From a virus, in IMG/VR virus record IMGVR_UViG_3300044826_000112: 64,000 nt of DNA, one strand, 5' to 3'. Positions 4,580-54,627 of this stretch are shown here, piece by piece; positions within the stretch are counted from its first letter, which is position 1; every line of letters begins with the position of its first letter. A program made the translations under genes and the position numbers. The notes beneath the pieces are model-generated. The model did not search any database. It saw only the letters and a program-made list of their open reading frames with translations, and was not told the DNA's origin.

Positions 4580-4959
4580 TATCAAGCGAGATTACCCGGG
4601 TCTGACCATCCTTCAAGTATTGGAGATGGACACACCTACGGAATCTTGATAGGGTTGTAACAGTCGATACCGGGAGGTGCCCATGGCGGACTTCGTATAT
4701 GTGGTCAAGGCTGTTACCAAGAACCTTGAAGAGGATGTAATCGGACTGACTCGTAGGGGATGCCCAACTGCGGCTCCTGGCTCTCACCACATCTGGGATG
4801 ATGAGGATGAAGCCTACGACTTTATGTTGAAAGCTGAAAGGTGCTTCAGTAAAGCCGTCTACCCGATCATGTACGTGCAACCTATCCGAGTATGACGAGG
4901 GCTCCTTCGGGAGCCCTACTTCTTGCTCTTCCGTCTCCTTTTAGCTATCATTCAGTTAT

Positions 4960-5035
4960 GCCCCAGTAGTTCAGTGGATAGAGCAACCGCCTTCTAAGCG
5001 GTGAGTCGTAGGTTCGAATCCTACCTGGGGTGCCA
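4960..5035 (+). tRNA. tRNA-Arg(TCT)
   Basis: GCCCCAG/CTGGGGT acceptor stem, ACCGC-CTTCTAA-GCGGT anticodon arm, GGTTCGAATCC, CCA. Confidence 0.93.
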
Positions 5036-5132
5036 CTCTCCTTTTCAATTTTCAGCATATAGCTCCGGTATAAGTACTACGTAGAGGAGGATATACCCTC
5101 CACTTTCTATTACTCACCACCAGGAGACTATC

Positions 5133-5411
5133 ATGTCTACACTTCCGGATACCTCGAACATGGTCATGATGACCGTGAATGATCTCATTGCCTTGCAAGA
5201 GAAAGCTGAAGACAAGCCGAAAGAATACTCCGTCGGAGATGCCATCGGCGGCATCCTCGGGGTTGCTCTGATCGGCGGAGGTCTGTACCTCGCCTGCTCT
5301 GGTCTGAACTCCAGCATGAGCAAAGACCGCCAGTACACCAAAGACATGGAACACGAAGTTAATGATCTTCGTACCCGTCTGGAAGCCCTCAAACAAGCCA
5401 CAGGTAAATAA
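5133..5411 (+). CDS. Small membrane protein, paralog 1
   Basis: One TM helix; C-terminal NDLRTRLEALKQATGK. Confidence 0.75.
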   Translation: MSTLPDTSNMVMMTVNDLIALQEKAEDKPKEYSVGDAIGGILGVALIGGGLYLACSGLNSSMSKDRQYTKDMEHEVNDLRTRLEALKQATGK

Positions 5412-5413
5412 TC

Positions 5414-5695
5414 ATGGAACTGAAACTCGAGAATGACTTCCTGGCGTTGGTAAATGCTGACCGCTATCAGGAACTGAAAGAACAAGCCGCTGCCAATGAG
5501 AACGCCTCTCAGAGCGTGCTGGAAACTACCCTGCAGGTTGCCACTGGTGCGATCATCGTGGGTGCCATCGGGTACATGGGTTATGCAGTGCATGACTCCA
5601 TCAAGCAATCCGAGAAGCGTTCTGAACTGCGTCGTGAAAAGAACGACCTGGCAGACCGTCTGGCAGAACTCAAGCGGAAAACCGAGAAGGAATAA
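5414..5695 (+). CDS. Small membrane protein, paralog 2
   Basis: TM helix; C-terminal NDLADRLAELKRKTEKE. Confidence 0.75.
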   Translation: MELKLENDFLALVNADRYQELKEQAAANENASQSVLETTLQVATGAIIVGAIGYMGYAVHDSIKQSEKRSELRREKNDLADRLAELKRKTEKE

Positions 5696-5698
5696 GTC

Positions 5699-5962
5699 AT
5701 GGAACTGGCTACTGGTAAGGTGATGATCTCCCAAGATCATCTGGAGATGATGCGGTTCGATGCGAGCCGCTCTGAGCGTAGTACTACTGCGGCGGTCGTA
5801 TCGACTGCCGTTATGGTTGGGGCAGCGGTGGCGGTGGGTTATGTTGTCTATTCAGATGTCAAAGACGGTCGAGATCACAGGGCCCGGATGGAAAAAATGC
5901 ACAACGAGCACGACGACCTCAAACGCCGAATCGCTGAGCTTACAAAGAAGAAGGACGCATAA
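5699..5962 (+). CDS. Small membrane protein, paralog 3
   Basis: TM helix; C-terminal DDLKRRIAELTKKKDA. Confidence 0.75.
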   Translation: MELATGKVMISQDHLEMMRFDASRSERSTTAAVVSTAVMVGAAVAVGYVVYSDVKDGRDHRARMEKMHNEHDDLKRRIAELTKKKDA

Positions 5963-7092: not shown

Positions 7093-8415
7093 ATGAACAT
7101 TAATCTCAAGAAACTGCTCGGTATTGGTGCAGCTGGTCTGCTCGGTGCTGTCATCCTCGTCTACGGTCTGTTCGGCTGGATCTACGTAGCTGGCGGTGAG
7201 TATGCCCGAATTCAGAAGCCTGATGGCTCCTATGAATGGCACGTCACCAACGGCTTCAAGGTGAAGACTCCGTTCCTGGATCGCTACGAGATCTTCAACC
7301 AGTACAACACCATCGACATGACCGATGGCGAGAACCCTACTGCAACGATCGATCTGCCGTTGCACAAGGTTAACTTCAACGATACCTACACCATGGATAT
7401 CGGCGTAACTGCCCGCTACTCCTTGATGCCGGATCCGGAGAAGCTGGAAATCATGTACCAGGCGAACAAGACCAACAAGGCCTTGGTTGCCAGCACCATG
7501 GTGCCGAACCTGCGTAACCTGTTGAGCCAGACTGCCAACCAGTTCCGCGGTGAGGACTACCTCCAGGGTGGTCAGAACGAGTTCCAAGCTCGTCTTTACT
7601 TCCAAGCTGAGAATGGCCTGTACGTTACCGAGCGTGTTAAGCGTGAAGTGGACGTTGAATCTGGCTACTCTGCCGACGTGAACGCTTCTGCTAACGCCGA
7701 AGGTACCAAGCAGACCAAGGCTATGGCCTGGGTTGTGGACATCGTTCGCGATGATCAAGGTAAGCCGATCACTCAAGAGAGCCAGCTGGCCAAGTTCGGC
7801 GTCATGCTGGATCTGATTGAGATCAACAAGTTCATTCCGGATCCCGATCTGGAAGCCTTCATGACTCAAAAGCGTGCCAAGATCCGTGAACGTGCCGGTA
7901 TCGTTGAAGACCAGCGTAACGCTCGTGAAGCTCAAGTAACTGCCCGCCTGATGGGTGAGAAAGAGCGTATCGAAGAGCGTAACAAGGCTCTGAAAGCTAA
8001 AGACCGTGCCGTTATTACCGAATCCCAGCAGGTAGCAGTTGAACAAGAACGTGCCAAGCTGGAAATCGTTAAGAAGGACAAGGAACTGAAGATCGCTCAG
8101 GCGAACGAAGGTATCCAAAAGGCCAACTACGAGGCTGCCAAGTATGAAGCTCTGGCTATCAAAGAGACCGGCTTGGCCGAAGCTCAGGTAGAAGACGCCA
8201 AGTATAAGGCTAAAGATCGTCAGCTCTACATGAAAGAGCTGGAGCTGGAAAACAACAAGCACCTGTACAATGCTCTGCCGGCCCTCAAGGTCCAGATGCC
8301 TCAGTACGTGCAGATGGGTGGCCAGAGTGGCATGAACAGCAACCTGGAAGCTATGTCCTCTCTCAAGCTGATGGAAGGCTTGGGTATGAGTACTCCAGCG
8401 ACTCCTGCCAAGTAA
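7093..8415 (+). CDS. SPFH/band-7 domain membrane protein
   Basis: N-terminal TM, GFKVKTPF segment, long Ala/Glu/Lys coiled-coil C-terminus. Confidence 0.75.
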   Translation: MNINLKKLLGIGAAGLLGAVILVYGLFGWIYVAGGEYARIQKPDGSYEWHVTNGFKVKTPFLDRYEIFNQYNTIDMTDGENPTATIDLPLHKVNFNDTYTMDIGVTARYSLMPDPEKLEIMYQANKTNKALVASTMVPNLRNLLSQTANQFRGEDYLQGGQNEFQARLYFQAENGLYVTERVKREVDVESGYSADVNASANAEGTKQTKAMAWVVDIVRDDQGKPITQESQLAKFGVMLDLIEINKFIPDPDLEAFMTQKRAKIRERAGIVEDQRNAREAQVTARLMGEKERIEERNKALKAKDRAVITESQQVAVEQERAKLEIVKKDKELKIAQANEGIQKANYEAAKYEALAIKETGLAEAQVEDAKYKAKDRQLYMKELELENNKHLYNALPALKVQMPQYVQMGGQSGMNSNLEAMSSLKLMEGLGMSTPATPAK

Positions 8416-43667: not shown

Positions 43668-45299
43668 TCACTCAGTGTAGGTGAAATCGCCTGTCAGGTA
43701 CTGGTATCCCACGTTCCCGAACACGACCGCATGCATCCAATCGTCCGGCTCATCCGGGTGGTGACGGTACACACGTTTACCTACCATCGTCTCCTCTTCG
43801 AAGACGCTCAGGGCATCTTTCCAGTAGCCTTCGGTCAGCTCCCAGGACGGGCACATGAAACGATCGGCACCAAGACGCCACTTCATCATTACGTTGTCGA
43901 TTGCTTGAGTACGGTCTGCAGCCAGGAATTGGCCGTTAGAGTCCCAACGCAGTCGCTTACCAGCCGACACGTACTGTACCATGATAACCTTATCATGACC
44001 CAGTTCTTTCTGCATCAGCTGACCTTGAAGAACACCGACCCCGCGGTCGGAAGCTACCATGCTGGCGTTCCAGCGACGTGCGATTTCACATACGCTGGCG
44101 ACTTGATCAAGAATGTGGATTCCCTGCATCTTCCGAGACTCCAGCAGGTAGCACTTGCCATTATAGTCGTATCCGAGCACAACTGCGACTGTATATGACT
44201 TCTCACTACCGGTAACCGACCAGTCCACACCAACGACAGTTGTCTGGATGGTTGGCAGGATAGCCTTGCTGACTTCATCAAGCGGCTCACCTTTAGCTAG
44301 TGCCAGGCCGGGCCATTGCTTCCAGGTATCTACGCAGCACTTCAGAGCTTCACTCATGGACAGGGACTTACCTGACAAGTCTGTAGCAAGCCCGAACACT
44401 TCGTTCGCCAGAGTAGCTGGGGTGTACAGACCGCCTTCCTGTGCGGAGATCACTTTGTCATACAGACGCGGCCAACGCTTAGGAACACAGTTAGCACCGA
44501 TAACAAGCTGCGGCAGGTGGAAACCTACGACCTTCTTGATGGTTGGTCTAGTAGATACCCAAGTACCCTTGTTCACGTCGATGAACTTACCGCACTTAAC
44601 GCAAGTAGGGCCATCTGGGTGAGAGCAGATCTTAACGCATGTGTCATAGTCGCCCGGGATGTTCCAATGGTTGCAGTGAGTGCACTTCATGGCCCATTCA
44701 AGTTGGTTACTACGAAGCCAAAGCTGCTCGAGAGTGTTCGAGACTGACTTACTGGTGCCGGCCATAACTTTGAAGCCATGGTCAGAGGCGTTAAGGATTT
44801 CGAAGATTGGTGGTAGGGCATCGAAGGAGATGTCCTGTACTTCGTCTACAGTCAGAAGGTCCGCCATGATACCACGAATACGGTCCGCATCAGATTCAGT
44901 CTGAGCGTAGGACAGGTAAATCGTGGAGCCGTTGGAGAAGCTCTTTTCGTAAACGTTACGGGAAGTACCGGTGGAGCGGAAGTACTTCTTCACCAAAGGG
45001 CTGTCCATGAAGCTATCCAGATAGGCGTTCGAGAAACGCTTGGCCTGAATCTGGAATGGTGCAATGTACAGCGAGTTGAAGTACGGCAACGCAATACTCT
45101 TAGACACCAAGCGGCCACCGAGAGATACGGACTTACCGATCTGACGGCCAGCCTTGAACACCATCAACTCCGGGTCGATGTCATAGATCGCCCGGAAGGG
45201 TTCGTACTGGTCGAATCGTAGCGGATATCCCTTCAGCTCCAGCAGGGATGCTGCTAGCTGTGAGGCCGTGGCGATACGAACGCTTTTCTGTTTAATCAT
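43668..45299 (-). CDS. terL: Terminase large subunit
   Basis: KAGRQIGKS Walker A, LTVDEVQD Walker B, GTSK, GVDW nuclease, PDDWMHA. Confidence 0.9.
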   Translation of the reverse strand: MIKQKSVRIATASQLAASLLELKGYPLRFDQYEPFRAIYDIDPELMVFKAGRQIGKSVSLGGRLVSKSIALPYFNSLYIAPFQIQAKRFSNAYLDSFMDSPLVKKYFRSTGTSRNVYEKSFSNGSTIYLSYAQTESDADRIRGIMADLLTVDEVQDISFDALPPIFEILNASDHGFKVMAGTSKSVSNTLEQLWLRSNQLEWAMKCTHCNHWNIPGDYDTCVKICSHPDGPTCVKCGKFIDVNKGTWVSTRPTIKKVVGFHLPQLVIGANCVPKRWPRLYDKVISAQEGGLYTPATLANEVFGLATDLSGKSLSMSEALKCCVDTWKQWPGLALAKGEPLDEVSKAILPTIQTTVVGVDWSVTGSEKSYTVAVVLGYDYNGKCYLLESRKMQGIHILDQVASVCEIARRWNASMVASDRGVGVLQGQLMQKELGHDKVIMVQYVSAGKRLRWDSNGQFLAADRTQAIDNVMMKWRLGADRFMCPSWELTEGYWKDALSVFEEETMVGKRVYRHHPDEPDDWMHAVVFGNVGYQYLTGDFTYTE

Positions 45300-45479
45300 T
45301 AGGGTTCTCCTTGATTACTGATTATAGTTTAAATCCAGAGATTTCGTTATAGTCATAGCTAAAAATAGATTGGATAAAGTTTCAACATTTTGAAAACCCC
45401 TGGTATAATAACTGTGTAGGCAAGTACGCTACGCTTACACATTTACCGAACCCAAATCATATCTTTTAGGAGAAATGCC

Positions 45480-45860
45480 ATGTCTATTACCTCTACCGTA
45501 GTTAAGATCCAAGGCCAAGCCGATGTAACCCTGCCGCTGGTTCTGACCGCTCAGGAAGTCATCGCCCAGATGACCAGCCAGGATCTGAACGGTATGAACA
45601 ACAGCACTTCCGAGTCCGGCTCCGTGCGTACCATCACCTTCACCAAGCGTACCGGTACCAAGGGCGCCGAGATCACCAGCACCGTGCTGAAGATCGAAGG
45701 CTACTCCGACGTGACCCTGCCGATGGCCCTGACCCTGGAGTCTGCTCGTGAGCAGTACCGCTCCGTGGATCTGTCCGGCTACAACGCCAACGTGACCGAA
45801 GACGGCTCTGTCCGTACTCTGTCCTTCACCAAGCGTACTGGTACCAAAGGTAACGATTAA
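45480..45860 (+). CDS. Tandem di-ubiquitin-like protein precursor (PRTRC protein C-like)
   Basis: Two 62-aa units, each ending FTKRTGTKG, plus an ND tail; heads an E2/JAB/E1 operon. Confidence 0.8.
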   Translation: MSITSTVVKIQGQADVTLPLVLTAQEVIAQMTSQDLNGMNNSTSESGSVRTITFTKRTGTKGAEITSTVLKIEGYSDVTLPMALTLESAREQYRSVDLSGYNANVTEDGSVRTLSFTKRTGTKGND

Positions 45861-45884
45861 GTTACCTCTGGCCGGTGCCAAAAA

Positions 45885-45913
45885 CGGGGAGCCTTCGGGC
45901 TCCCTATTTTTTT
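45885..45913 (+). terminator. Intra-operon terminator after the Ubl gene
   Basis: ggggagcc-ttcg-ggctccct followed by a T-run. Confidence 0.8.
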
Positions 45914-45934
45914 AGTCTCTGCAGAGAGGTTTCT

Positions 45935-47116
45935 ATGTACTTCTGCTATACGAAAGAGTTTGATATTAGCAGAGCAAGAGCTAACGGAGTTCCTCGGATC
46001 AGCAGCGTATCTCTGGCTACCTTCGGCAGCTGGCAGGTATCTCGCACCCCATCCCCAGAGCACTACGGATTCATCAACTCGCCATCACTTGAAGAAGGTC
46101 TTAAAGACTTCCTCAATTATGGCTTTGAGGAACTTCGTAAGGTTGAGTTCACAGACTTAGCCGACGGGGAAGTAGAGAACTTCCAACGGATGATTGCGAT
46201 TGACATCCAGAACATCTGTAAGGAGTTCTTACAACAGTCTGATGATAGCGGTTGTTTTTCAATAATCAACGTGATTCAGACGGCACTGAACGACCTGTAC
46301 GAAAAACTTGGAGTATCCAGCGGGCCATTCATCATCTCACACCCTCCGGTAACTACTGGAGCCCTGCGAGATTTGGTTCGTGGAATTATCTCCAACGCAT
46401 CTACTGGTATGCGTAAGTTCTTTCCTCCGCGTATTGCGTCGGAAACTACCATGCAGACCTGCCGTCCAATGATCAACACGCATCGCTTCGAGAGCTCAGA
46501 AGGATTTCAGCATTCCATCATCAAATCGCTGCGTCATGGCCCTACTTTGGAAGCCTTAGAATATGTCGGTGAAGATGATGTAATCTCGCTGAACGGGTTC
46601 GAAATCGATCTCGATGATACTCCGCTGACTCGCCGATATGTGCGGTTCATCCAGCATTTGGCACATAAATACTCCCCGTATCGCCTGCAGGTTCGCCTGC
46701 ATAGCCAATCCAGGAGTATTCGTATAATGCCACTCATCGAGCAGGATTACATTATCGAGGCAGCGTTCGAACGCTTCCGCGGTCACATCCCTTGTGAGTT
46801 GCCGGAAGATCTTCCTTTAGAAGACAAATTGGTCTTGAGCTTTATGGTCATCTCTCAGATGAACCTAGCTCCGCGGTGGCCAATAACTATCACAGACGCG
46901 GACTACCACGAGTACAACCGTGCTGCTATGGTAGAACGCCTGAGTCGTGTAGGCACTGAGGTTAATCTCACACCTATAGATATGACTCATATCTTCAACC
47001 ACATCATGCCCCATCTGGTGGAGGTAATATGGTCCATAGGCAAGCTGAAATGGACGCACTTGCAATCAACTTCGCTGAACTTCCCGGAATTGGCGACGTT
47101 TACGCAGAACGCATAG
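45935..47116 (+). CDS. Uncharacterised protein in the Ubl operon
   Basis: Start reassigned after the GAGG RBS (MYFCY); no motif recognised. Confidence 0.65.
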   Translation: MYFCYTKEFDISRARANGVPRISSVSLATFGSWQVSRTPSPEHYGFINSPSLEEGLKDFLNYGFEELRKVEFTDLADGEVENFQRMIAIDIQNICKEFLQQSDDSGCFSIINVIQTALNDLYEKLGVSSGPFIISHPPVTTGALRDLVRGIISNASTGMRKFFPPRIASETTMQTCRPMINTHRFESSEGFQHSIIKSLRHGPTLEALEYVGEDDVISLNGFEIDLDDTPLTRRYVRFIQHLAHKYSPYRLQVRLHSQSRSIRIMPLIEQDYIIEAAFERFRGHIPCELPEDLPLEDKLVLSFMVISQMNLAPRWPITITDADYHEYNRAAMVERLSRVGTEVNLTPIDMTHIFNHIMPHLVEVIWSIGKLKWTHLQSTSLNFPELATFTQNA

Positions 47117-47307
47117 GTCAGGCTATCGATGATATGGTCTCTCGCATTGGGGGTATCAACTTCGAGGATCGTGCGTATGTCCATGCGTTATCTATCAATC
47201 ACATCAGACAGCGTCGTAACGTGCAGATCAACCGGGTCATACCGGTAGAGCAGCGTTTGAACTTCCGGGCCTACCGTCCGGTAATGTCTGGCATCGTTTT
47301 CATCTGA
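47050..47307 (+). CDS. Small protein with a helix-hairpin-helix-like motif
   Basis: FAELPGIGDVYAERI; overlaps the end of the upstream ORF. Confidence 0.5.
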   Translation: MDALAINFAELPGIGDVYAERIGQAIDDMVSRIGGINFEDRAYVHALSINHIRQRRNVQINRVIPVEQRLNFRAYRPVMSGIVFI

Positions 47308-47314
47308 GGTATCT

Positions 47315-47992
47315 ATGATCGTAGAACTCAAACCCAACGGGGTCCTCGTGGACAATGGCCTCGGTGGCAAGAAGGTCATTTCATATGAATCCTTCATCGC
47401 CGAAATTGCCAAGATGGCAACTGAAGATACTGCCGCTATGGTGCGTACCTTAGGTCTGCCGGAGGGTGCATATGTGCTGGCTCAGAATGGTCGTGAAGCG
47501 ACTATCGGCATGTACTACCCCTCTCGTCGTGCCACTCTGGACTTCAGCGGTACCAAATTCAAGGACGTCCTGTTGCCCAACGTGGTAATCATGGTCGGCC
47601 TTACCAACTTCGGCGTAGACGGTGACTTTGCCATCCTGGATGGCATTCACTGGTTCTGTACCGATCTCCCTCTGGCGATCATGCCGCGGGTTACTTTCCG
47701 TAGCCTGAATGATCTGCCAGAAGGCCTTGCTGGTCACGTATGGTGCCTGCCGTTCCCCAATATGTATTCGGGGATGGGCTGCTCCATGTGTACTGGCAGC
47801 AACAGCTTCATTAGCCGCTTCCCAGATAACCAACTGGCAGGCATCTCCTCTTACTATAACGATCTGTTCATCGGTAGTCGCTTTAACAACGACTTGGGCC
47901 AGTGGATGATTGAGAATGGCAGAGGCTGGCCTGAATGGTTGCGTGAACTGGCGGCTGCTGAAGAATTTCCCTACAATAGACTGCGGAGTTAA
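47315..47992 (+). CDS. Prokaryotic E2 family D-like conjugating enzyme (PRTRC protein B-like)
   Basis: LPFPNMY..G..MCTGSN (candidate catalytic Cys), FIGSRFNNDL. Confidence 0.7.
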   Translation: MIVELKPNGVLVDNGLGGKKVISYESFIAEIAKMATEDTAAMVRTLGLPEGAYVLAQNGREATIGMYYPSRRATLDFSGTKFKDVLLPNVVIMVGLTNFGVDGDFAILDGIHWFCTDLPLAIMPRVTFRSLNDLPEGLAGHVWCLPFPNMYSGMGCSMCTGSNSFISRFPDNQLAGISSYYNDLFIGSRFNNDLGQWMIENGRGWPEWLRELAAAEEFPYNRLRS

Positions 47993-47997
47993 GTCTG

Positions 47998-49368
47998 ATG
48001 ATCAATATCACTCTGTTCGAATCCCTGGTAACCGAGCGTGACTTCCTGGATAAGAAGTTCCCGGACCATCACAACGTGATCAACGTACTGGCAAACGATG
48101 GCAAGCTCTACCGCTACCATCGCTATGCCGGTGAGCGTGAGCTCCTGACGAAGATCGCCGAAACCCCCATCCGTTTCGTCGATAAGACTCAGCTCGTAGA
48201 GCGTCGTCAAATCGTGCCGGGCGGAGTGCGTGTTCCGATGCAGCTGTTGAAAGACATCGAGAACTTCTTCCGTGCCTTCATGATCAAGAACGTGACCTCC
48301 GCTGCCGGGTATCGCCCGGGCCACGGTGACTACGAGGCTATGGCCTTGATCCTGTACAACCTGGATACACAGCAGTATCGCGTATCCATCCCTACCCAGA
48401 AAGTCTCCAAAGCATCTGTGTCCTATGACATCGATGACAAGGCTGACAACGAGATCGTGGTAGTGGATATCCACAGCCACAACTCTATGGGTGCCTTCTT
48501 CTCCGGTGTGGATGATCGTGATGATCGCTCCGGTGCTTGGGTGACGGGCGTACTGGGTAAATTGGATCAGCCAGAGTTCGCCTCGGTATGGCGTTTCAAC
48601 GCCGGTGCTACCAAGGTTCAGCTGACCATCGCTGACATCTTCGAAACCCCGACCATCACCGCTAACCCGGTTGATCAGGCCTGGATGGACAAGGTGCAAG
48701 TAGGCTACTCCAGCTACGGTGGTACTCCGTACTACCAGCGTCCGGTAGGCGGTGCCCAAGTGGGTAACTCCAAAGTAGGGGGTGCCCAGGTGGGAAACCA
48801 CAACTTTCAATCCGAAGCCAAAAGCCCCCGCATCTACGGTGCTGAGGTTGGAGGACTTGGTGGGGGAAAATCACAAGGGGGGTTCGGAAAAAACCCAGCT
48901 GGATTCCCCGTTGAAAGTGACTTCTTCGACCAAGAAGCCTACGAAGAACTCATGGACATGCTGGGTGTCGACGGCTTGGGCTCACGCCTGGACTTGGATG
49001 ACGACATCCCTTTCGAGGAGGACGAAGTAGTTGGTGAGGCCGATGCTTCTCTCGTCCGTCAAATTGACAAACTTCTCGGCCGAATCGAAAACGAGCACGC
49101 CTATGGGCTCGTAGTGGAGAACATCGTTCAGTACGTGACCGATGAAGCTGTCCTGGTGGATATGGCGGGAGAAGTAGTAGACCGCATCACCGATGGCATC
49201 CCGGATCTGACTGAGCGTGGTATCTACGTCATCACCGATCCTGAGCAAGTAGTAGATGCTATGGCCGACATGTGCGGCGAGTATCTGCATGCTGATCAAA
49301 TTGCTACTGCGTTCAATGAGATCTCAGAAGCTCAGGGTGTCCTCTACACATACACTCCCAAGGAGTAA
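47998..49368 (+). CDS. JAB/JAMM metalloprotease (PRTRC protein A-like) with acidic C-terminal extension
   Basis: EAMALI...PTQKVS...DIHSHNSMGAFFSGVDDRDD (E...HxH-x7-S-x2-D). Confidence 0.88.
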   Translation: MINITLFESLVTERDFLDKKFPDHHNVINVLANDGKLYRYHRYAGERELLTKIAETPIRFVDKTQLVERRQIVPGGVRVPMQLLKDIENFFRAFMIKNVTSAAGYRPGHGDYEAMALILYNLDTQQYRVSIPTQKVSKASVSYDIDDKADNEIVVVDIHSHNSMGAFFSGVDDRDDRSGAWVTGVLGKLDQPEFASVWRFNAGATKVQLTIADIFETPTITANPVDQAWMDKVQVGYSSYGGTPYYQRPVGGAQVGNSKVGGAQVGNHNFQSEAKSPRIYGAEVGGLGGGKSQGGFGKNPAGFPVESDFFDQEAYEELMDMLGVDGLGSRLDLDDDIPFEEDEVVGEADASLVRQIDKLLGRIENEHAYGLVVENIVQYVTDEAVLVDMAGEVVDRITDGIPDLTERGIYVITDPEQVVDAMADMCGEYLHADQIATAFNEISEAQGVLYTYTPKE

Positions 49369-49371
49369 AAG

Positions 49372-50514
49372 ATGTTTCACACTCGATTCAACCGGATTGT
49401 GTCGAATGTGATCATCGTAGGTTGCGGCGGGACTGGTTCCCGCCTCATTCCTATGGTGGCACAGTTCATGAAAAGCTGCCCGGCTATCCTCGATCCGTTC
49501 ATCACCCTGATCGACGGGGATACAGTGGAGATGAAGAATCTGGCTCGTCAGAACTTCATCAAGCCGGATATCGGCCGTCACAAGTCCGAAGTGCTGGCGG
49601 AGCGTTATGGCGGGGCTATCGAAATCCCCATCGTATCTATCCCGGAATACTACCAGTACTCCAAGTACAAGGACTTCCGCGGCTGGCTGCAGAACCACTA
49701 CTCGAAGCTGGATCCGAACCTGGCCAACCGTTCTGTCGGTAGCCCGATCGTCTTCTTCGCAGTGGACTCTATGCAGGCACGGATGGAGATCTTAGCAGGC
49801 ATCATGTACTCTCGCTTCCGCAACCACACCTGGGCGTCTGTGATGCCCATCATCGTGGATGCCGGTAACGAGAATACCTTCGGCCAGGTTAGCGTGTATC
49901 ACGCGGCTGTCGTACCTGATGATTCCCACTACCTCCATCATCGCCATGTAGAAGAGTTCATTCGCAGCTTCAACTCTCTGAGCACCATCAAGAAGGGCTA
50001 TGTTGGCGGCGATCTCAACTTCCCACTGCGTCCTGCTCCGGTAGACATGCTGGTATCTGCCCTGGAGAACCCCTCCGAGGCTGACGTATCGTGTGCCGAC
50101 TTGGATCAGACTGCTGCGATCAACGCTCAGATGGCTGTAGGTATGTTCACTGCATTCCAGAACATCTGTCTGAACCACAAGATGACGATTCTGACTTCCT
50201 ACTTCGATATTCATAATGGCAACAGTCAGACGAAGATCGATGATTGGCTGCTGAATCTGCCGGAAGAGGATCCCTCTAAAGGTGCTCGGGTGACCGCTGA
50301 GCGTATCGCCAAGGCATTGAAGAAGGCCCGTGATGTGAAGACTTTGGATAATGATTCTTCTGAGATGTGCCGCCTCCTGGCGTCAGGCACGGTCGATATG
50401 GATATGACCATTATCCGTGATGCCCGTCAGGTAGCCCAAGCGGCTATCAAAGATGGATCTATCTCCAAGCGTAACTTGGAGTTGGAAGCTCTGCTTAACG
50501 GCAGGGCAGCATAA
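49372..50514 (+). CDS. ThiF/E1-like ubiquitin-activating enzyme
   Basis: IIVGCGGTGS, IDGDTVEMKNLARQNF, K..VLAERY, DAGN, SCADL (candidate catalytic Cys). Confidence 0.92.
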   Translation: MFHTRFNRIVSNVIIVGCGGTGSRLIPMVAQFMKSCPAILDPFITLIDGDTVEMKNLARQNFIKPDIGRHKSEVLAERYGGAIEIPIVSIPEYYQYSKYKDFRGWLQNHYSKLDPNLANRSVGSPIVFFAVDSMQARMEILAGIMYSRFRNHTWASVMPIIVDAGNENTFGQVSVYHAAVVPDDSHYLHHRHVEEFIRSFNSLSTIKKGYVGGDLNFPLRPAPVDMLVSALENPSEADVSCADLDQTAAINAQMAVGMFTAFQNICLNHKMTILTSYFDIHNGNSQTKIDDWLLNLPEEDPSKGARVTAERIAKALKKARDVKTLDNDSSEMCRLLASGTVDMDMTIIRDARQVAQAAIKDGSISKRNLELEALLNGRAA

Positions 50515-50540
50515 GAAAAGGGCCCATTGGGCCCTTTTTT
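50515..50540. terminator. Bidirectional terminator
   Basis: aaaagggccc-att-gggccctttttt between convergent genes. Confidence 0.75.
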
Positions 50541-51786
50541 AGCTAGACTCGAGGTCCGTTCTACGTTCACGAGAGGAGACGTCAGGAGTATCCGTAATGG
50601 AGAATACTGCCGCTTCCAAACCGTGAGTATCGAACATAGTCAGAGTACCTGCACGCTTATCCCAGCTCCAAGAGCCCATAGCTTCGGCGTGAATATCCAT
50701 GATCATGTCGATGACGTTAGATGGTACACCTTCAATACCTGCCAGAAGAGTCTTCAGCTCGTTTTGATCACTAGACATATGACCATGTACGCCTTCGATG
50801 GCGGACATAACGCCGGAGATCTGGCTACCAGTGCTCGCCATAACAGCCGATGCTTGATCTTGAACTACCTGATTGGTGTTAGTGAAACGAGAATTTACGT
50901 TATCGAAAAGCCCATTCATGCTGCTTTGCATGCTGGAAATGTGAGAGTGTACACCATTGAACTGGGTATCAGACACATCCTTTACAGCGTCCACTTGGGC
51001 AATTACCAGGTCTACTTTGGCACCCACAGTTTGACTGGTGGAAGTCACGTTAGTGTCTACCGCAGTAACCTGCAGAGCAATAGCATCCAGCTTATCCAGA
51101 ATATCCAGAATAGGAGACATGTCTACTGTGCCACCGCCGCAACCGCATCCACCACCATCTCCACTACCCTCGTAGTTATCAGGCACGAAGAACTTGAACA
51201 CCTGTTTGGATTCGATCAGCTGAACACCCATAGAGGTATAGGTGAAGGTGTGCCCGCAGATTACGCGGATCTTCAGGAAGGTGTCGATAGGCTGCTCTTC
51301 AATCACATGTACGTGGTTGAGCGTTAAGTCCCAAGGACGAGTATCGGAGTAGATCTCGCTGTTATGGTTGACCATAACGTGAGTATCCGGGTATGGCTTA
51401 GGGTTGTTCTCGTCGTCGATCACACCATCAGCACGGTATAGGACAAGCTCCCGGGAGCCACTGCCAGTGCGTGTGTTGTAGTGCATGTCGGTGAAGACTA
51501 CTGGAGAGTCCAGCAGCCAGCCGCGGTGGTAAATAACGCCGAAAAAGCAGGTGTCGTAACCGCCTTCGATCTCCCAGTTAATCTGCACGGTGTGCAGGTC
51601 GGTGTAGAAATCGGCCGGAATCCCATTGCCAAAGTTAGGGGTGTACTGAGAGACTGTTACACCTCGCTGGTACAGTTCGATCGTTGGCGGTTGGGAGATA
51701 TCCAACGGCAGGATCATCTTGTACACCATCGCTTTGTAGTTAGCCACGTCGCCGTGAACGATGGGGTTAGATGCAATTAGCTTCAT
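50539..51786 (-). CDS. Putative virion protein with a coiled-coil region
   Basis: Late-strand ORF; Gly linker followed by a heptad-like region. Confidence 0.6.
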   Translation of the reverse strand: MKLIASNPIVHGDVANYKAMVYKMILPLDISQPPTIELYQRGVTVSQYTPNFGNGIPADFYTDLHTVQINWEIEGGYDTCFFGVIYHRGWLLDSPVVFTDMHYNTRTGSGSRELVLYRADGVIDDENNPKPYPDTHVMVNHNSEIYSDTRPWDLTLNHVHVIEEQPIDTFLKIRVICGHTFTYTSMGVQLIESKQVFKFFVPDNYEGSGDGGGCGCGGGTVDMSPILDILDKLDAIALQVTAVDTNVTSTSQTVGAKVDLVIAQVDAVKDVSDTQFNGVHSHISSMQSSMNGLFDNVNSRFTNTNQVVQDQASAVMASTGSQISGVMSAIEGVHGHMSSDQNELKTLLAGIEGVPSNVIDMIMDIHAEAMGSWSWDKRAGTLTMFDTHGLEAAVFSITDTPDVSSRERRTDLESS

Positions 51787-52268
51787 ACAGATTCCTCCAT
51801 AGCCCGAATGTAGAGACGAATAGCTTTCGCTTTGTTAGCGGTCTCTTGTTCGGTTTGCTCTGTGGTCAGGGGCTCTTTGATGAAGTCGAATGGTGGAACA
51901 GCTTTGGCGTACCCTTCTTCCTGCAGTACGTAATGGCAAATAGTGGCCAGTACGGAGGAGTCTTTGATATCTACCAAGCCCTTCAGTTCAACTAAAGCCC
52001 ACGCTAGCTCGAGACTGTTCGGCATGTGCACGAAATCAGGCTCAAGCAGGTGTCCGTTTGCTACTTCTACGAAACGTAGGAAGTAGTCTGCGTTCTCAAG
52101 GAATTCAAGCGGGTTATGCTTGACGGCCTTGATCATTTGGATCTTCTCGACAGTATGGGGGTCGAAAGCGGCCCCCGTATCCAGGGAGAGCGTCTCTGTT
52201 TCCAGAGACGTCCAATCCTGGCCATACCGTCGAGTGAAGAGTTTATCAAGTCTCACTAGAGTGCTCAT
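51783..52268 (-). CDS. Hypothetical protein (late strand)
   Basis: Coupled ORF. Confidence 0.65.
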   Translation of the reverse strand: MSTLVRLDKLFTRRYGQDWTSLETETLSLDTGAAFDPHTVEKIQMIKAVKHNPLEFLENADYFLRFVEVANGHLLEPDFVHMPNSLELAWALVELKGLVDIKDSSVLATICHYVLQEEGYAKAVPPFDFIKEPLTTEQTEQETANKAKAIRLYIRAMEESV

Positions 52269-53116
52269 ACGATTCCTGCAAGTGTTTTCTTCTCAGCCAG
52301 AGGAAGTGCCTCAAGGGCATGCTTCATGTTAAGCGGGTCTTCTTTCAGAAGAGCACCGACGTCTGGGCCTAGGATAGCAGAAACCTTGCTGGAGCCCAAG
52401 GCGATAATCTTCTCAACCGGTACGGACTTAGAGCCCAGGTTGACGGTCACACCGGCAAGCTTGGTCATGAAGATGTCCTTGTAGATGTCACCGAGGTACC
52501 CAGCAGTCTTGTCCAGACCCATGATGGTGCTGGCAATGTTCCGCTTGTCTTCAGTGGACAGCTTGTATGGGTCAACGCCTTGGATTACGTGAGCAACCTT
52601 TTCGAACTCAGAGTTACCGGTCTTCTTAGCACGGTAAGTCAGAGCAGCGACAGCCGCTTCCTTGTTTAGGTGGCCTTCGCCGCCGTACAGACGAACAAGA
52701 GGAGACTGGATGTGCTCACCGTAGTTGTCTACCAGAGACTCTGCCATAGCGGCCAGCTTTTCCATGTCCGGAATACCGCTCAGGGAGCCTTCGAAGATCT
52801 GTTCGGCCATACGGACTTCAGCAGTCACATCATCAGAGGCTTGCTTTTGAAGGGCTGCAGCCTTGATCATCTTGTGGGCCATGTCTTCTACTTGATCACG
52901 TACGTCGTACAGTTCGACAGCTTTGCCGACACGACGCAGGTGTTCTTCGTCGACCATCTGGTTAGCAACCTTGGTCAGGAAGGTAATTTCAAGGGCTGAT
53001 GCGATAGTGGCATCCCTGGAAGTAGTCGGGAACTCGGTCTCTACGCAGGCCTGCTTGACGATTCCGGCAGCCTCCGGAATCAGTTCGATAACGTTCTTAA
53101 GTGCATATAGGGACAT
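52265..53116 (-). CDS. Putative head-internal/scaffold-type protein with repeated hydrophobic-x-K-x-A motifs
   Basis: AGGAGG RBS; about 9 KxA motifs. Confidence 0.55.
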   Translation of the reverse strand: MSLYALKNVIELIPEAAGIVKQACVETEFPTTSRDATIASALEITFLTKVANQMVDEEHLRRVGKAVELYDVRDQVEDMAHKMIKAAALQKQASDDVTAEVRMAEQIFEGSLSGIPDMEKLAAMAESLVDNYGEHIQSPLVRLYGGEGHLNKEAAVAALTYRAKKTGNSEFEKVAHVIQGVDPYKLSTEDKRNIASTIMGLDKTAGYLGDIYKDIFMTKLAGVTVNLGSKSVPVEKIIALGSSKVSAILGPDVGALLKEDPLNMKHALEALPLAEKKTLAGIV

Positions 53117-54488: not shown

Positions 54489-54627
54489 TACTAGATATCC
54501 TTTAGAGCAACGACATGTTCCGTGTAGCCGCCCCACACGGGTCCGGCACACACGTCAAGAAATCTCGAGATAATGGTATAACTATTGTAGAGAAGCCTTA
54601 TTACACTAACCATATTCGAGGTCCCAC

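Follow-up and report, generated by a model that had tools for sequence, protein, structure and literature searches.

The DNA analysed here (the window) is a 64,000-nucleotide stretch of IMG/VR virus record IMGVR_UViG_3300044826_000112, from a phage genome of 175,261 bp estimated to be 98% complete (IMG/VR); its plus strand carries a six-gene operon that probably encodes a ubiquitin-like protein (Ubl) conjugation system. With a probability of roughly 0.6, we read this operon as a ParB-less, highly diverged conjugation cassette of the PRTRC type (operon type 6d) that belongs to the core of its phage lineage and would convert a tandem Ubl precursor into units conjugated to target proteins, as proposed below. 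An earlier note, made from the sequence alone, had suggested a complete Ubl/E2/JAB/E1 operon of this type, and our profile, model and gene-order tests support it. New here are the clade-wide core status of the cassette, its fixed position, its conserved promoter and probable attenuator, and the variable number of Ubl copies.

The plus-strand unit spans window positions 45382-50540 as a single operon of six closely packed open reading frames (ORFs), lying between a divergent large-terminase gene and a convergent block of minus-strand genes. Along the plus strand, the ORFs encode the di-Ubl precursor (45480-45860, 126 aa), a protein here called X (45935-47116, 393 aa from its ATG), a small protein (47029-47307, 92 aa), an E2-like protein (47315-47992, 225 aa), a JAB/JAMM metallopeptidase (47998-49368, 456 aa) and a ThiF-type E1 (49372-50514, 380 aa). 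The ORF reading bore out all six places given in the earlier note, and the motifs claimed there for the E1 (GCGGTG, as part of VGCGGTGS, and SCADL), the JAB protein (as part of HSHNSMGAFFSGVD) and the E2-like protein (a conserved Cys) could all be read in the sequence. In near-identical strains from several wastewater and freshwater studies, the operon is about 1.6% divergent and free of frame-breaking indels, and 32 of the 40 best-supported single-nucleotide polymorphisms (SNPs) listed fall on codon position 3 of the six frames. Metatranscriptome contigs of run X15 span the operon; DNA carry-over is possible in them, and they were not counted as evidence of transcription.

The E1 matches Pfam ThiF above its cut-off (1.8e-11; 44.1 bits against 28.1), and its best NCBIfam match is PRTRC_ThiF (TIGR03736; 7e-16), at 58.3 bits below the 144.75 cut-off. 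Its motifs are G17-C-G-G-T-G22 (49420-49437), D48, R59-Q60, K71 and D132, and the candidate thioester Cys241 lies within S-C-A-D-L (codon 50092-50094). Conservation reaches at least 95% among 31-38 distinct clade sequences at G17, G19-G22, D48, N56, R59, Q60, K71, D132 and S240-C241-A-D-L. These residues supply the GxGxxG loop, Arg finger, Mg-binding Asp and conserved Cys expected of an adenylating E1 of the ThiF/MoeB/Uba superfamily. In Vibrio phage D69 (OZ195729; L002:8001-8978), the E1 is annotated as two small coding sequences (CDSs) on opposite strands. Yet a complete E1 (GCGGTG ... SCADLDQ) can be read in one open frame that begins at 8001; it has no ATG, GTG or TTG near the JAB stop, and its start is probably non-canonical or coupled.

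The JAB protein likewise exceeds the cut-off of Pfam Prok-JAB (6.4e-7), and its best NCBIfam match is PRTRC_A (TIGR03735; 1.4e-18; 67.2 bits, below the cut-off of 101.8). The JAMM site consists of E113, H159-S-H161 (48472-48480), S169 and D172; E113, H159, S160, H161, S169 and D172 are at least 95% conserved in 31 sequences, and the pattern E ... H-x-H-x(7)-S-x(2)-D expected for the metal site of an active JAMM/MPN+ peptidase is complete. About 110 residues precede the catalytic Glu, with R47 at least 95% conserved; the JAB proteins of type 6d have an N-terminal alpha+beta domain (JAB-N) with a conserved Arg and Trp (PMC1779556). Past approximately residue 240, a Gly-rich linker leads into an acidic C-terminal region. 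One freshwater strain has a 30-nt in-frame duplication in this linker (window 48743), which adds a further copy of the VGGAQVGNSK-like repeat. The match to the JAB gene is split in three relatives, with about 340-1140 nt between its two parts (L031:4111-5781, L037:3927-6369 and L069:3912-6354), and in another relative a 181-aa ORF lies between JAB and E1 (L007:11798-12343); these may be mobile intron, intein or homing-endonuclease insertions. Enlarged versions also occur, with an 859-aa JAB protein at L099:5389-7968 and a 1046-aa E1 and a 400-aa E2-like protein at L026:67-3207 and 4715-5917; the added length suggests further fused domains, which could give a clue to partners or targets.

The first gene of the operon encodes two Ubl repeats, residues 1-62 (45480-45665) and 63-124 (45666-45851), both of which terminate in FTKRTGTKG, with a two-residue tail (ND) before the stop codon. 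The AlphaFold2 (AF2) model (mean confidence, pLDDT, 72.6) shows a strand-strand-helix-strand-strand pattern twice. Foldseek ranks ISG15 and linear di-ubiquitin first among PDB structures (probability up to 1.0, E about 1e-3), and an independent all-against-all structural search (VIA) returned almost exclusively beta-grasp proteins (GB1, MoaD, SUMO, FAT10, UBX and TtuB), though Z, for a domain this small, stays at a modest 5 or less. The earlier note had asked whether the Ubl models as a beta-grasp fold; the prediction gives two such units. The Ubl scores 13.8 bits against NCBIfam PRTRC_C, for which the cut-off is 45.95, and profile comparison with PRTRC_C gave 81% (hhalign, E 1.2e-5). The C-terminal F-x-R-x-G-x-K-G motif and the length are common to the phage Ubl and plasmid PRTRC_C, which ends in F-V-R-A-A-G-A-K-G plus 2-8 residues.

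Among the relatives, the Ubl is present in 1, 2, 3 or 5 copies: one in Salmonella phage Arash and most others, two in the window and in no fewer than nine further loci, three in Vibrio phage D69 and five in a single contig of 172 kb. G-[TNA]-K-G closes each unit in all relatives. The majority of the single Ubls stop exactly at the terminal Gly, and the others carry 1-5 further residues. No longer poly-Ubl protein scored in a set of 5.8 billion proteins, searched with a word-limited method that makes this weak evidence. By analogy only, the tandem Ubl has the architecture of eukaryotic polyubiquitin genes (UBI4/UBB/UBC), in which units likewise stand head to tail, each with its C-terminal motif for processing and activation, one or a few residues cap the last unit, and copy number varies by lineage; sequence and enzymes are unrelated at the family level, and the processing enzyme in the phage would be a JAMM peptidase. 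Such an architecture predicts JAB-dependent cleavage between Ubl units. Alternatively, the di-Ubl might act whole, like ISG15 or FAT10. An uncut, ISG15-like tandem fits less well, because the internal units keep the full motif and because the D69 and five-unit proteins have long, non-conserved linkers. The Ubl CDS deposited for Arash (OQ632216; gp251c, L001:102-320) is apparently in the wrong frame: the Arash Ubl comprises 66 aa, ends in RRTGTKG and lies at L001:107-307, and is therefore undetectable in proteomic searches that use the deposited proteins.

The E2-like protein carries the motif LPFPNMY..MC159TGSN, in which P146-F-P-N149-x-Y151 stands ten residues ahead of the candidate catalytic Cys159 (codon 47789-47791). 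This Cys is retained in all 38 distinct sequences compared, in which P146, N149, Y151, C159, G161, N191 and D193 are at least 95% conserved. UBC enzymes bear an H-P-N ... Cys signature, which the invariant P-F-P-N-x-Y ... C159-x-G-x-N of the phage protein appears to mirror, with F-P-N in place of H-P-N. Searches with Pfam and NCBIfam hidden Markov models gave no direct family match for the window protein itself. Two relatives, P0007 and P0008, are 32-34% identical to it over the full length (E 9e-23 and 3e-16) and match Prok-E2_D (4.9e-8) and PRTRC_B (2.4e-7). In the ESM Atlas, the protein scores 0.95 among Prok-E2_D/PRTRC_B clusters, one of which is named 'putative PRTRC system protein B' and two of which are mostly viral. 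The E2-like protein with a conserved Cys proposed in the earlier note is supported by the Cys kept in 38 sequences and by links to Prok-E2_D and PRTRC_B through intermediates and language-model features.

The remaining two products are clade-specific. Protein X has no match in Pfam, NCBIfam, PHROGs or PADLOC and no usable one in the ESM Atlas, and has only six relatives among 1.84 billion representative proteins. A GTG start would give it 413 aa and extend it through the hairpin behind the Ubl gene; the ATG gives 393 aa. Within its subclade about 45 positions are invariant, with charged residues at many of them, and its C-terminus bears the motif STSLNFPEL; 6 of its 7 listed SNPs are at codon position 3. 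The small ORF overlaps the end of X by 88 nt, stops 7 nt ahead of the E2 start and has a good ribosome-binding site (GGAGG-N4-ATG); the same overlap with X is seen in most loci, where the counterpart also adjoins the E2 start or runs into it. Its product has no family match in Pfam (E<=1), NCBIfam, PHROGs or PADLOC, and the counterparts share only a hydrophobic C-terminal tip, [DG]-x-[FY]-[VIL]-COOH. The helix-hairpin-helix (HhH) label that the small ORF had been given in the earlier note was rejected, being without Pfam support at that threshold and resting on an LPGIG..A..I stretch that relatives do not conserve. Both proteins are unalignable across subclades, where MAFFT alignments are too poor to define domains. 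A complex prediction for X, the E2-like protein and the small protein returned a score of 0.00, which is no answer, neither for nor against binding. X and the small protein, fast-evolving and clade-specific, are the strongest candidates among the six products to choose the targets, or else to be modified in their own right.

PRTRC cassettes (NCBIfam TIGR03734-03742) are found on Burkholderiales plasmids and integrative and conjugative elements, for example pMOL28 of Cupriavidus metallidurans. The name stands for ParB-Related, ThiF-Related Cassette; the cassettes are equivalent to operon type 6d of Iyer, Burroughs & Aravind, who in 2006 predicted that they are ubiquitin-like conjugation systems (PMC1779556). 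As reference we used eight annotated plasmid loci, all in the order ParB-E-C-F-B-A-ThiF, whose proteins were set against those of the phage by profile-profile comparison. The phage order Ubl-X-(small)-E2-JAB-E1 matches C-F-B-A-ThiF of the eight plasmids, and the phage JAB protein and E1 are distant homologues of proteins A and ThiF, as the Ubl and the E2-like protein probably are of C and B. The hhalign comparison gave 99.5% over 224 columns for the E1 with PRTRC_ThiF and 99.1% for the JAB protein with PRTRC_A, in which the match begins at phage column 76, corresponding to PRTRC_A column 74. Of the profile checks suggested in the earlier note, those against ThiF and Prok-JAB were positive, as was that against PRTRC_A by hhalign, though below the NCBIfam cut-off; those against PRTRC B and C and Prok-E2_D came out mixed, with the Ubl linked to protein C by hhalign and motif but below the NCBIfam cut-off, the E2-like protein reaching its families via intermediates, and its direct match to protein B being weak.

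The differences are equally distinct. No match to ParB_N (PF02195) or PRTRC_parB (TIGR03734) was found in the whole 175,261-bp genome, so that the absence of a ParB partner noted earlier for the window holds genome-wide, whereas the plasmid cassettes are ParB-linked. PRTRC_E and PRTRC_F have no detectable phage counterpart: X occupies the PRTRC_F position and is of similar size (PRTRC_F has roughly 380 aa), but neither X against PRTRC_F nor the small protein against PRTRC_E gave an NCBIfam match or an hhalign signal (0.1%). The phage JAB protein (456 aa; about 213 in PRTRC_A) and E1 (380 aa; about 270 in PRTRC_ThiF) are extended by long C-terminal regions, the phage Ubl is tandemly repeated, and the carrier is a large phage of lytic type with the cassette inside its virion and packaging gene cluster. 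In type 6d, the E2-like proteins have lost the classical His and have an invariant His after the Cys (PMC1779556); in alignments of 14 and 38 phage sequences no invariant His follows C159, the invariant residues there being G161, N191, D193 and L194. By homology and gene order the cassette is PRTRC/type-6d-like, but by the family's own criteria it is outside PRTRC, because its scores stay below the cut-offs, ParB is missing, E and F are undetectable and the type-6d His is absent. In four of the eight plasmid loci (L010-L017), an N-6 DNA methylase gene lies at or near the upstream side of ParB.

Other systems share parts of this design. Bil (BilABCD) and CBASS Cap2/Cap3 follow the same logic of a Ubl or target C-terminus, an E1, an E2 and a JAB deconjugase, and Bil is ISG15-like, as is the tandem beta-grasp modifier of the phage; they differ in being host defences in which E1 and E2 are fused or otherwise arranged. 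The E1-E2 models of PADLOC match only E1 residues ~12-80 (best 6.5e-7) and none of the other five proteins, and NCBIfam NF058523 matches the E1 at 3.8e-5 without reaching its 320-bit cut-off. On these matches, the cassette is not a Bil, CBASS or 6A-MBL system. Phages lambda and T1 have a beta-grasp protein with a C-terminal Gly and a JAB partner in a morphogenesis cluster (the tail-assembly Ubl TAPI and the JAB-NlpC protein TAPK; PMC1779556); unlike the present cassette, this pair lacks E1 and E2 and is not a conjugation system, and no sequence relation to it was found.

The operon appears to be transcribed from a promoter of its own. A -35-like TCAACA (45382-45387) and, after 16 nt, an extended -10 element TGGTATAAT (45401-45409) form a sigma-70-like promoter with 10 of 12 matches and a TG extension in the promoter scan, followed by a conserved AACTGTGTAGG (feature 45382..45420, plus strand). 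Five copies of the core TGGTATAA stand in the window (1936, 17153, 45401, 54574 and 61280), all of them on the plus strand, where 1.1 would be expected, and none of 100 shuffles reached five; each copy is followed by N2 and a similar AyTnTGkAG stretch. In most relatives, TTCAAy-(N)-TGGTATAA stands 65-115 nt upstream of the Ubl start codon. This enrichment and conservation agree with the promoter motif that had been placed before the operon in the earlier note. The motif is promoter-like and phage-wide, heading plus-strand units set among minus-strand virion genes, and its copy at 54574 heads a unit with a retron-like reverse transcriptase (RT).

Between the Ubl gene and X lies a terminator-like hairpin (45886..45913, plus strand; GGGGAGCC-TTCG-GGCTCCCT, then ATTTTTTTAG). 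A hairpin with a T-run, often ending in TTTTTTTAG, occurs within the first 75 nt past the Ubl stop in 27 of 35 distinct relatives. It is a probable attenuator, which would yield much more modifier than enzymes. The operon ends in a two-way terminator (AAAAGGGCCCATTGGGCCCTTTTTT, 50516..50540) that is shared with the convergent minus-strand gene 50539-51786. Its palindromic GGGCCCATTGGGCCC hairpin with A/T runs on both sides (~50516-50540) was seen by eye and is unlisted by the automatic scan, and it is on this visual reading that the bidirectional terminator of the earlier note is retained.

The cassette is a fixed core module of the Arash-like clade of phages of about 110-190 kb. With the E1 as tblastn query, matches came up in Salmonella phage Arash and Vibrio phages D69, D181 and D148; of these, Arash and D69 were inspected, and both have the order Ubl-X-small-E2-JAB-E1; at the nucleotide level, the sole blastn match of the operon among GenBank phages is 250 nt in Arash. 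A search for related loci with the single E1 protein found none, and alignment-based scans succeeded: the scan with the E2 profile recovered five IMG/VR contigs with the gene order of the window. In four of these five the terminase gene lies on one side of the cassette, as in the window, where the divergent neighbour described in the earlier note is indeed the large terminase (43668-45299, minus strand; phrog_675, E 6.9e-44). Homologues of the genes at window 50539-53116 lie on the other side in four of the five contigs and in Arash and D69. The synteny check across related phages thus gave the same order and the same flanking genes in Arash, D69 and the IMG/VR relatives.

The next survey was anchored on the terminase and took in 37 testable IMG/VR loci, those with a terminase identity of 44% or more and with 7 kb or more of DNA upstream. 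In 36 of them, Ubl, E2, JAB and E1 genes stand directly beside the terminase gene. The 37th is a complete 192.7-kb genome with terminal repeats, whose full cassette lies away from the terminase gene and still adjoins the three convergent d415/d161/d283 genes. No cassette was found beside the terminase gene in 28 outgroup loci (terminase 31-33% identical), and no ThiF was found in five outgroup records searched whole (four 89-93% complete, one 54%). The survey makes the cassette a shared derived character of the clade, vertically inherited rather than a mobile island. The gene convergent on E1 (window 50539-51786, minus strand) always adjoins the cassette, even where the terminase gene does not. 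At the C-terminus of its product, some 55 aa form a domain (W-x-W-D-K ... R-E-R-R-x-D-L-E) that all relatives conserve, and the N-terminal part varies from about 20 to about 360 residues between them; counterparts lie at L001:4528-4761, L002:9864-10304, L004:6410-6820 and L099:9365-9763.

From homology and conserved residues, we infer the following course for all steps of the cassette's work. The phage-specific promoter would drive strong transcription of the Ubl gene, and the hairpin past it would pass only part of the transcripts on to the enzyme genes, leaving the modifier in excess. The Ubl would be produced as a head-to-tail precursor, of two units here and one to five in relatives. The JAB peptidase would cut after each T-G-T-K-G, which would both free the units from one another and take off the ND tail; later it may also remove conjugates. 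The E1 would adenylate the exposed C-terminal Gly and then load the Ubl on Cys241, from which it would be transferred to Cys159 of the E2-like protein and finally ligated to a lysine of a target protein. As the weakest step of the reading, we prefer to see the cassette as serving the phage's own programme of infection or assembly rather than as an optional anti-defence accessory, because it is universal in the clade and always beside the same block of virion genes, and beside the terminase gene in all relatives but one.

Several points weigh against this picture. All four recognisable parts score below the NCBIfam cut-offs, and the E2 assignment rests on transitive sequence links: the comparison of the E2-like protein with PRTRC_B is weak (hhalign 6.8%, P 0.005), even if still the best off-diagonal pairing, its AF2 model from a nine-row alignment (pLDDT 50) is unusable for the fold, and the family profile gave only chance matches to PDB sequences, with no solved relative. 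The Ubl ends in Lys-Gly instead of Gly-Gly. Because the Ubls of most relatives have the Gly as their last residue, the JAB protein must do more than trim precursors. No E3-like protein is recognisable, the core position is compatible with a defence-related role as well, and we found no functional studies of PRTRC in the searchable literature. The Arash annotations speak for expression of the enzymes and do not place them. In the GenBank record, the homologues of E1 and E2 bear the name 'structural protein', a label given in the Arash paper to formerly hypothetical proteins found by mass spectrometry of particle preparations (PMC10585845); the gp numbers in its table may be offset from the GenBank tags. 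The particle proteome contained 116 of 272 proteins, ribonucleotide reductases among them (PMC10585845). With such metabolic enzymes detected, the labels show that the proteins are made, not that they are located in the virion, and we rejected them as evidence for virion location.

A serious rival, which we nevertheless regard as unlikely, is a conserved role in counter-defence or host takeover, in which the Ubl would tag and disable a host protein such as an immune sensor, or the JAB peptidase would compete with or reverse host Ubl immunity such as Bil or CBASS Cap2/Cap3, with phage proteins left untouched. All characterised bacterial E1/E2/JAB systems operate in phage-host conflict, the very fast evolution of X and the small protein is a pattern typical of arms-race interfaces, and the promoter class is common to other plus-strand units that look accessory, such as the retron-like RT operon at 54574. 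On the other hand, the cassette is universal and syntenic in the clade, whereas anti-defence genes usually differ between close relatives, and PADLOC matches stay at the P-loop level. The hosts also appear diverse (Salmonella, Vibrio, freshwater and wastewater bacteria), so that a single host target would need to be widely conserved.

Two further readings concern the chemistry. The Ubl could polymerise into a structural array or be attached to a non-canonical acceptor such as DNA or a nucleotide, a lipid or a cell-wall precursor. Plasmid PRTRC goes together with a DNA-binding protein of the ParB family, a hint of some link to DNA; a Ubl gene designed for high output would be in keeping with a structural product; and some bacterial Ubls are reported to form filaments (PMC11601603). 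We consider this quite improbable, given that the genome has no ParB, that Pfam, NCBIfam, PHROGs and PADLOC reveal no recognisable transferase for a non-protein acceptor, and that no sequence feature points to such chemistry. Still less probable is a sulfur carrier of the ThiS/MoaD/TtuB kind, for which the E1 would make a thiocarboxylate for tRNA or other thiolation without protein conjugation and the JAB peptidase would merely expose the terminal Gly. JAB, Ubl and E1 sets do occur in the sulfur assimilation of some bacteria (Iyer et al. 2006, PMC1779556), and the E1 gives weak NCBIfam matches of ThiF/MoeB/TcdA type, but these span only residues ~11-80 and lie far below the cut-off. No rhodanese, cysteine desulfurase or sulfurtransferase was found in the operon with Pfam, NCBIfam or PHROGs, the E2-like protein is kept with its invariant Cys in 38 of 38 sequences, the Ubl ends in K-G rather than G-G, and a multi-copy modifier gene with an attenuator better suits a stoichiometric tag than a catalytic carrier.

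The preferred reading remains a diverged PRTRC-type conjugation cassette, and we found no published description of such cassettes in phages in the searchable literature. Machinery of the E1/E2/JAB kind known from host defence is here a fixed core module of a phage lineage. A bolder extension, which we offer tentatively and consider doubtful, is that the whole large-phage clade depends on its own Ubl conjugation, fed by a polyubiquitin-style precursor, to mark phage or host proteins during infection; virion assembly or stabilisation would be an example of such built-in marking. If true, no virus-encoded writer/eraser Ubl system would have been shown in prokaryotic viruses before, and the PRTRC/6d family, predicted in 2006, would gain its first functional handle. 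Culturable phages belong to the lineage, namely Vibrio phages D69, D148 and D181 and also Arash, which was isolated on S. Typhimurium ATCC 14028. They offer a tractable system in which to ask which substrates the cassette tags and whether Ubl conjugation serves a prokaryotic virus in its own assembly or in takeover. A further question for this system is whether a polyubiquitin-like precursor strategy arose independently outside eukaryotes.

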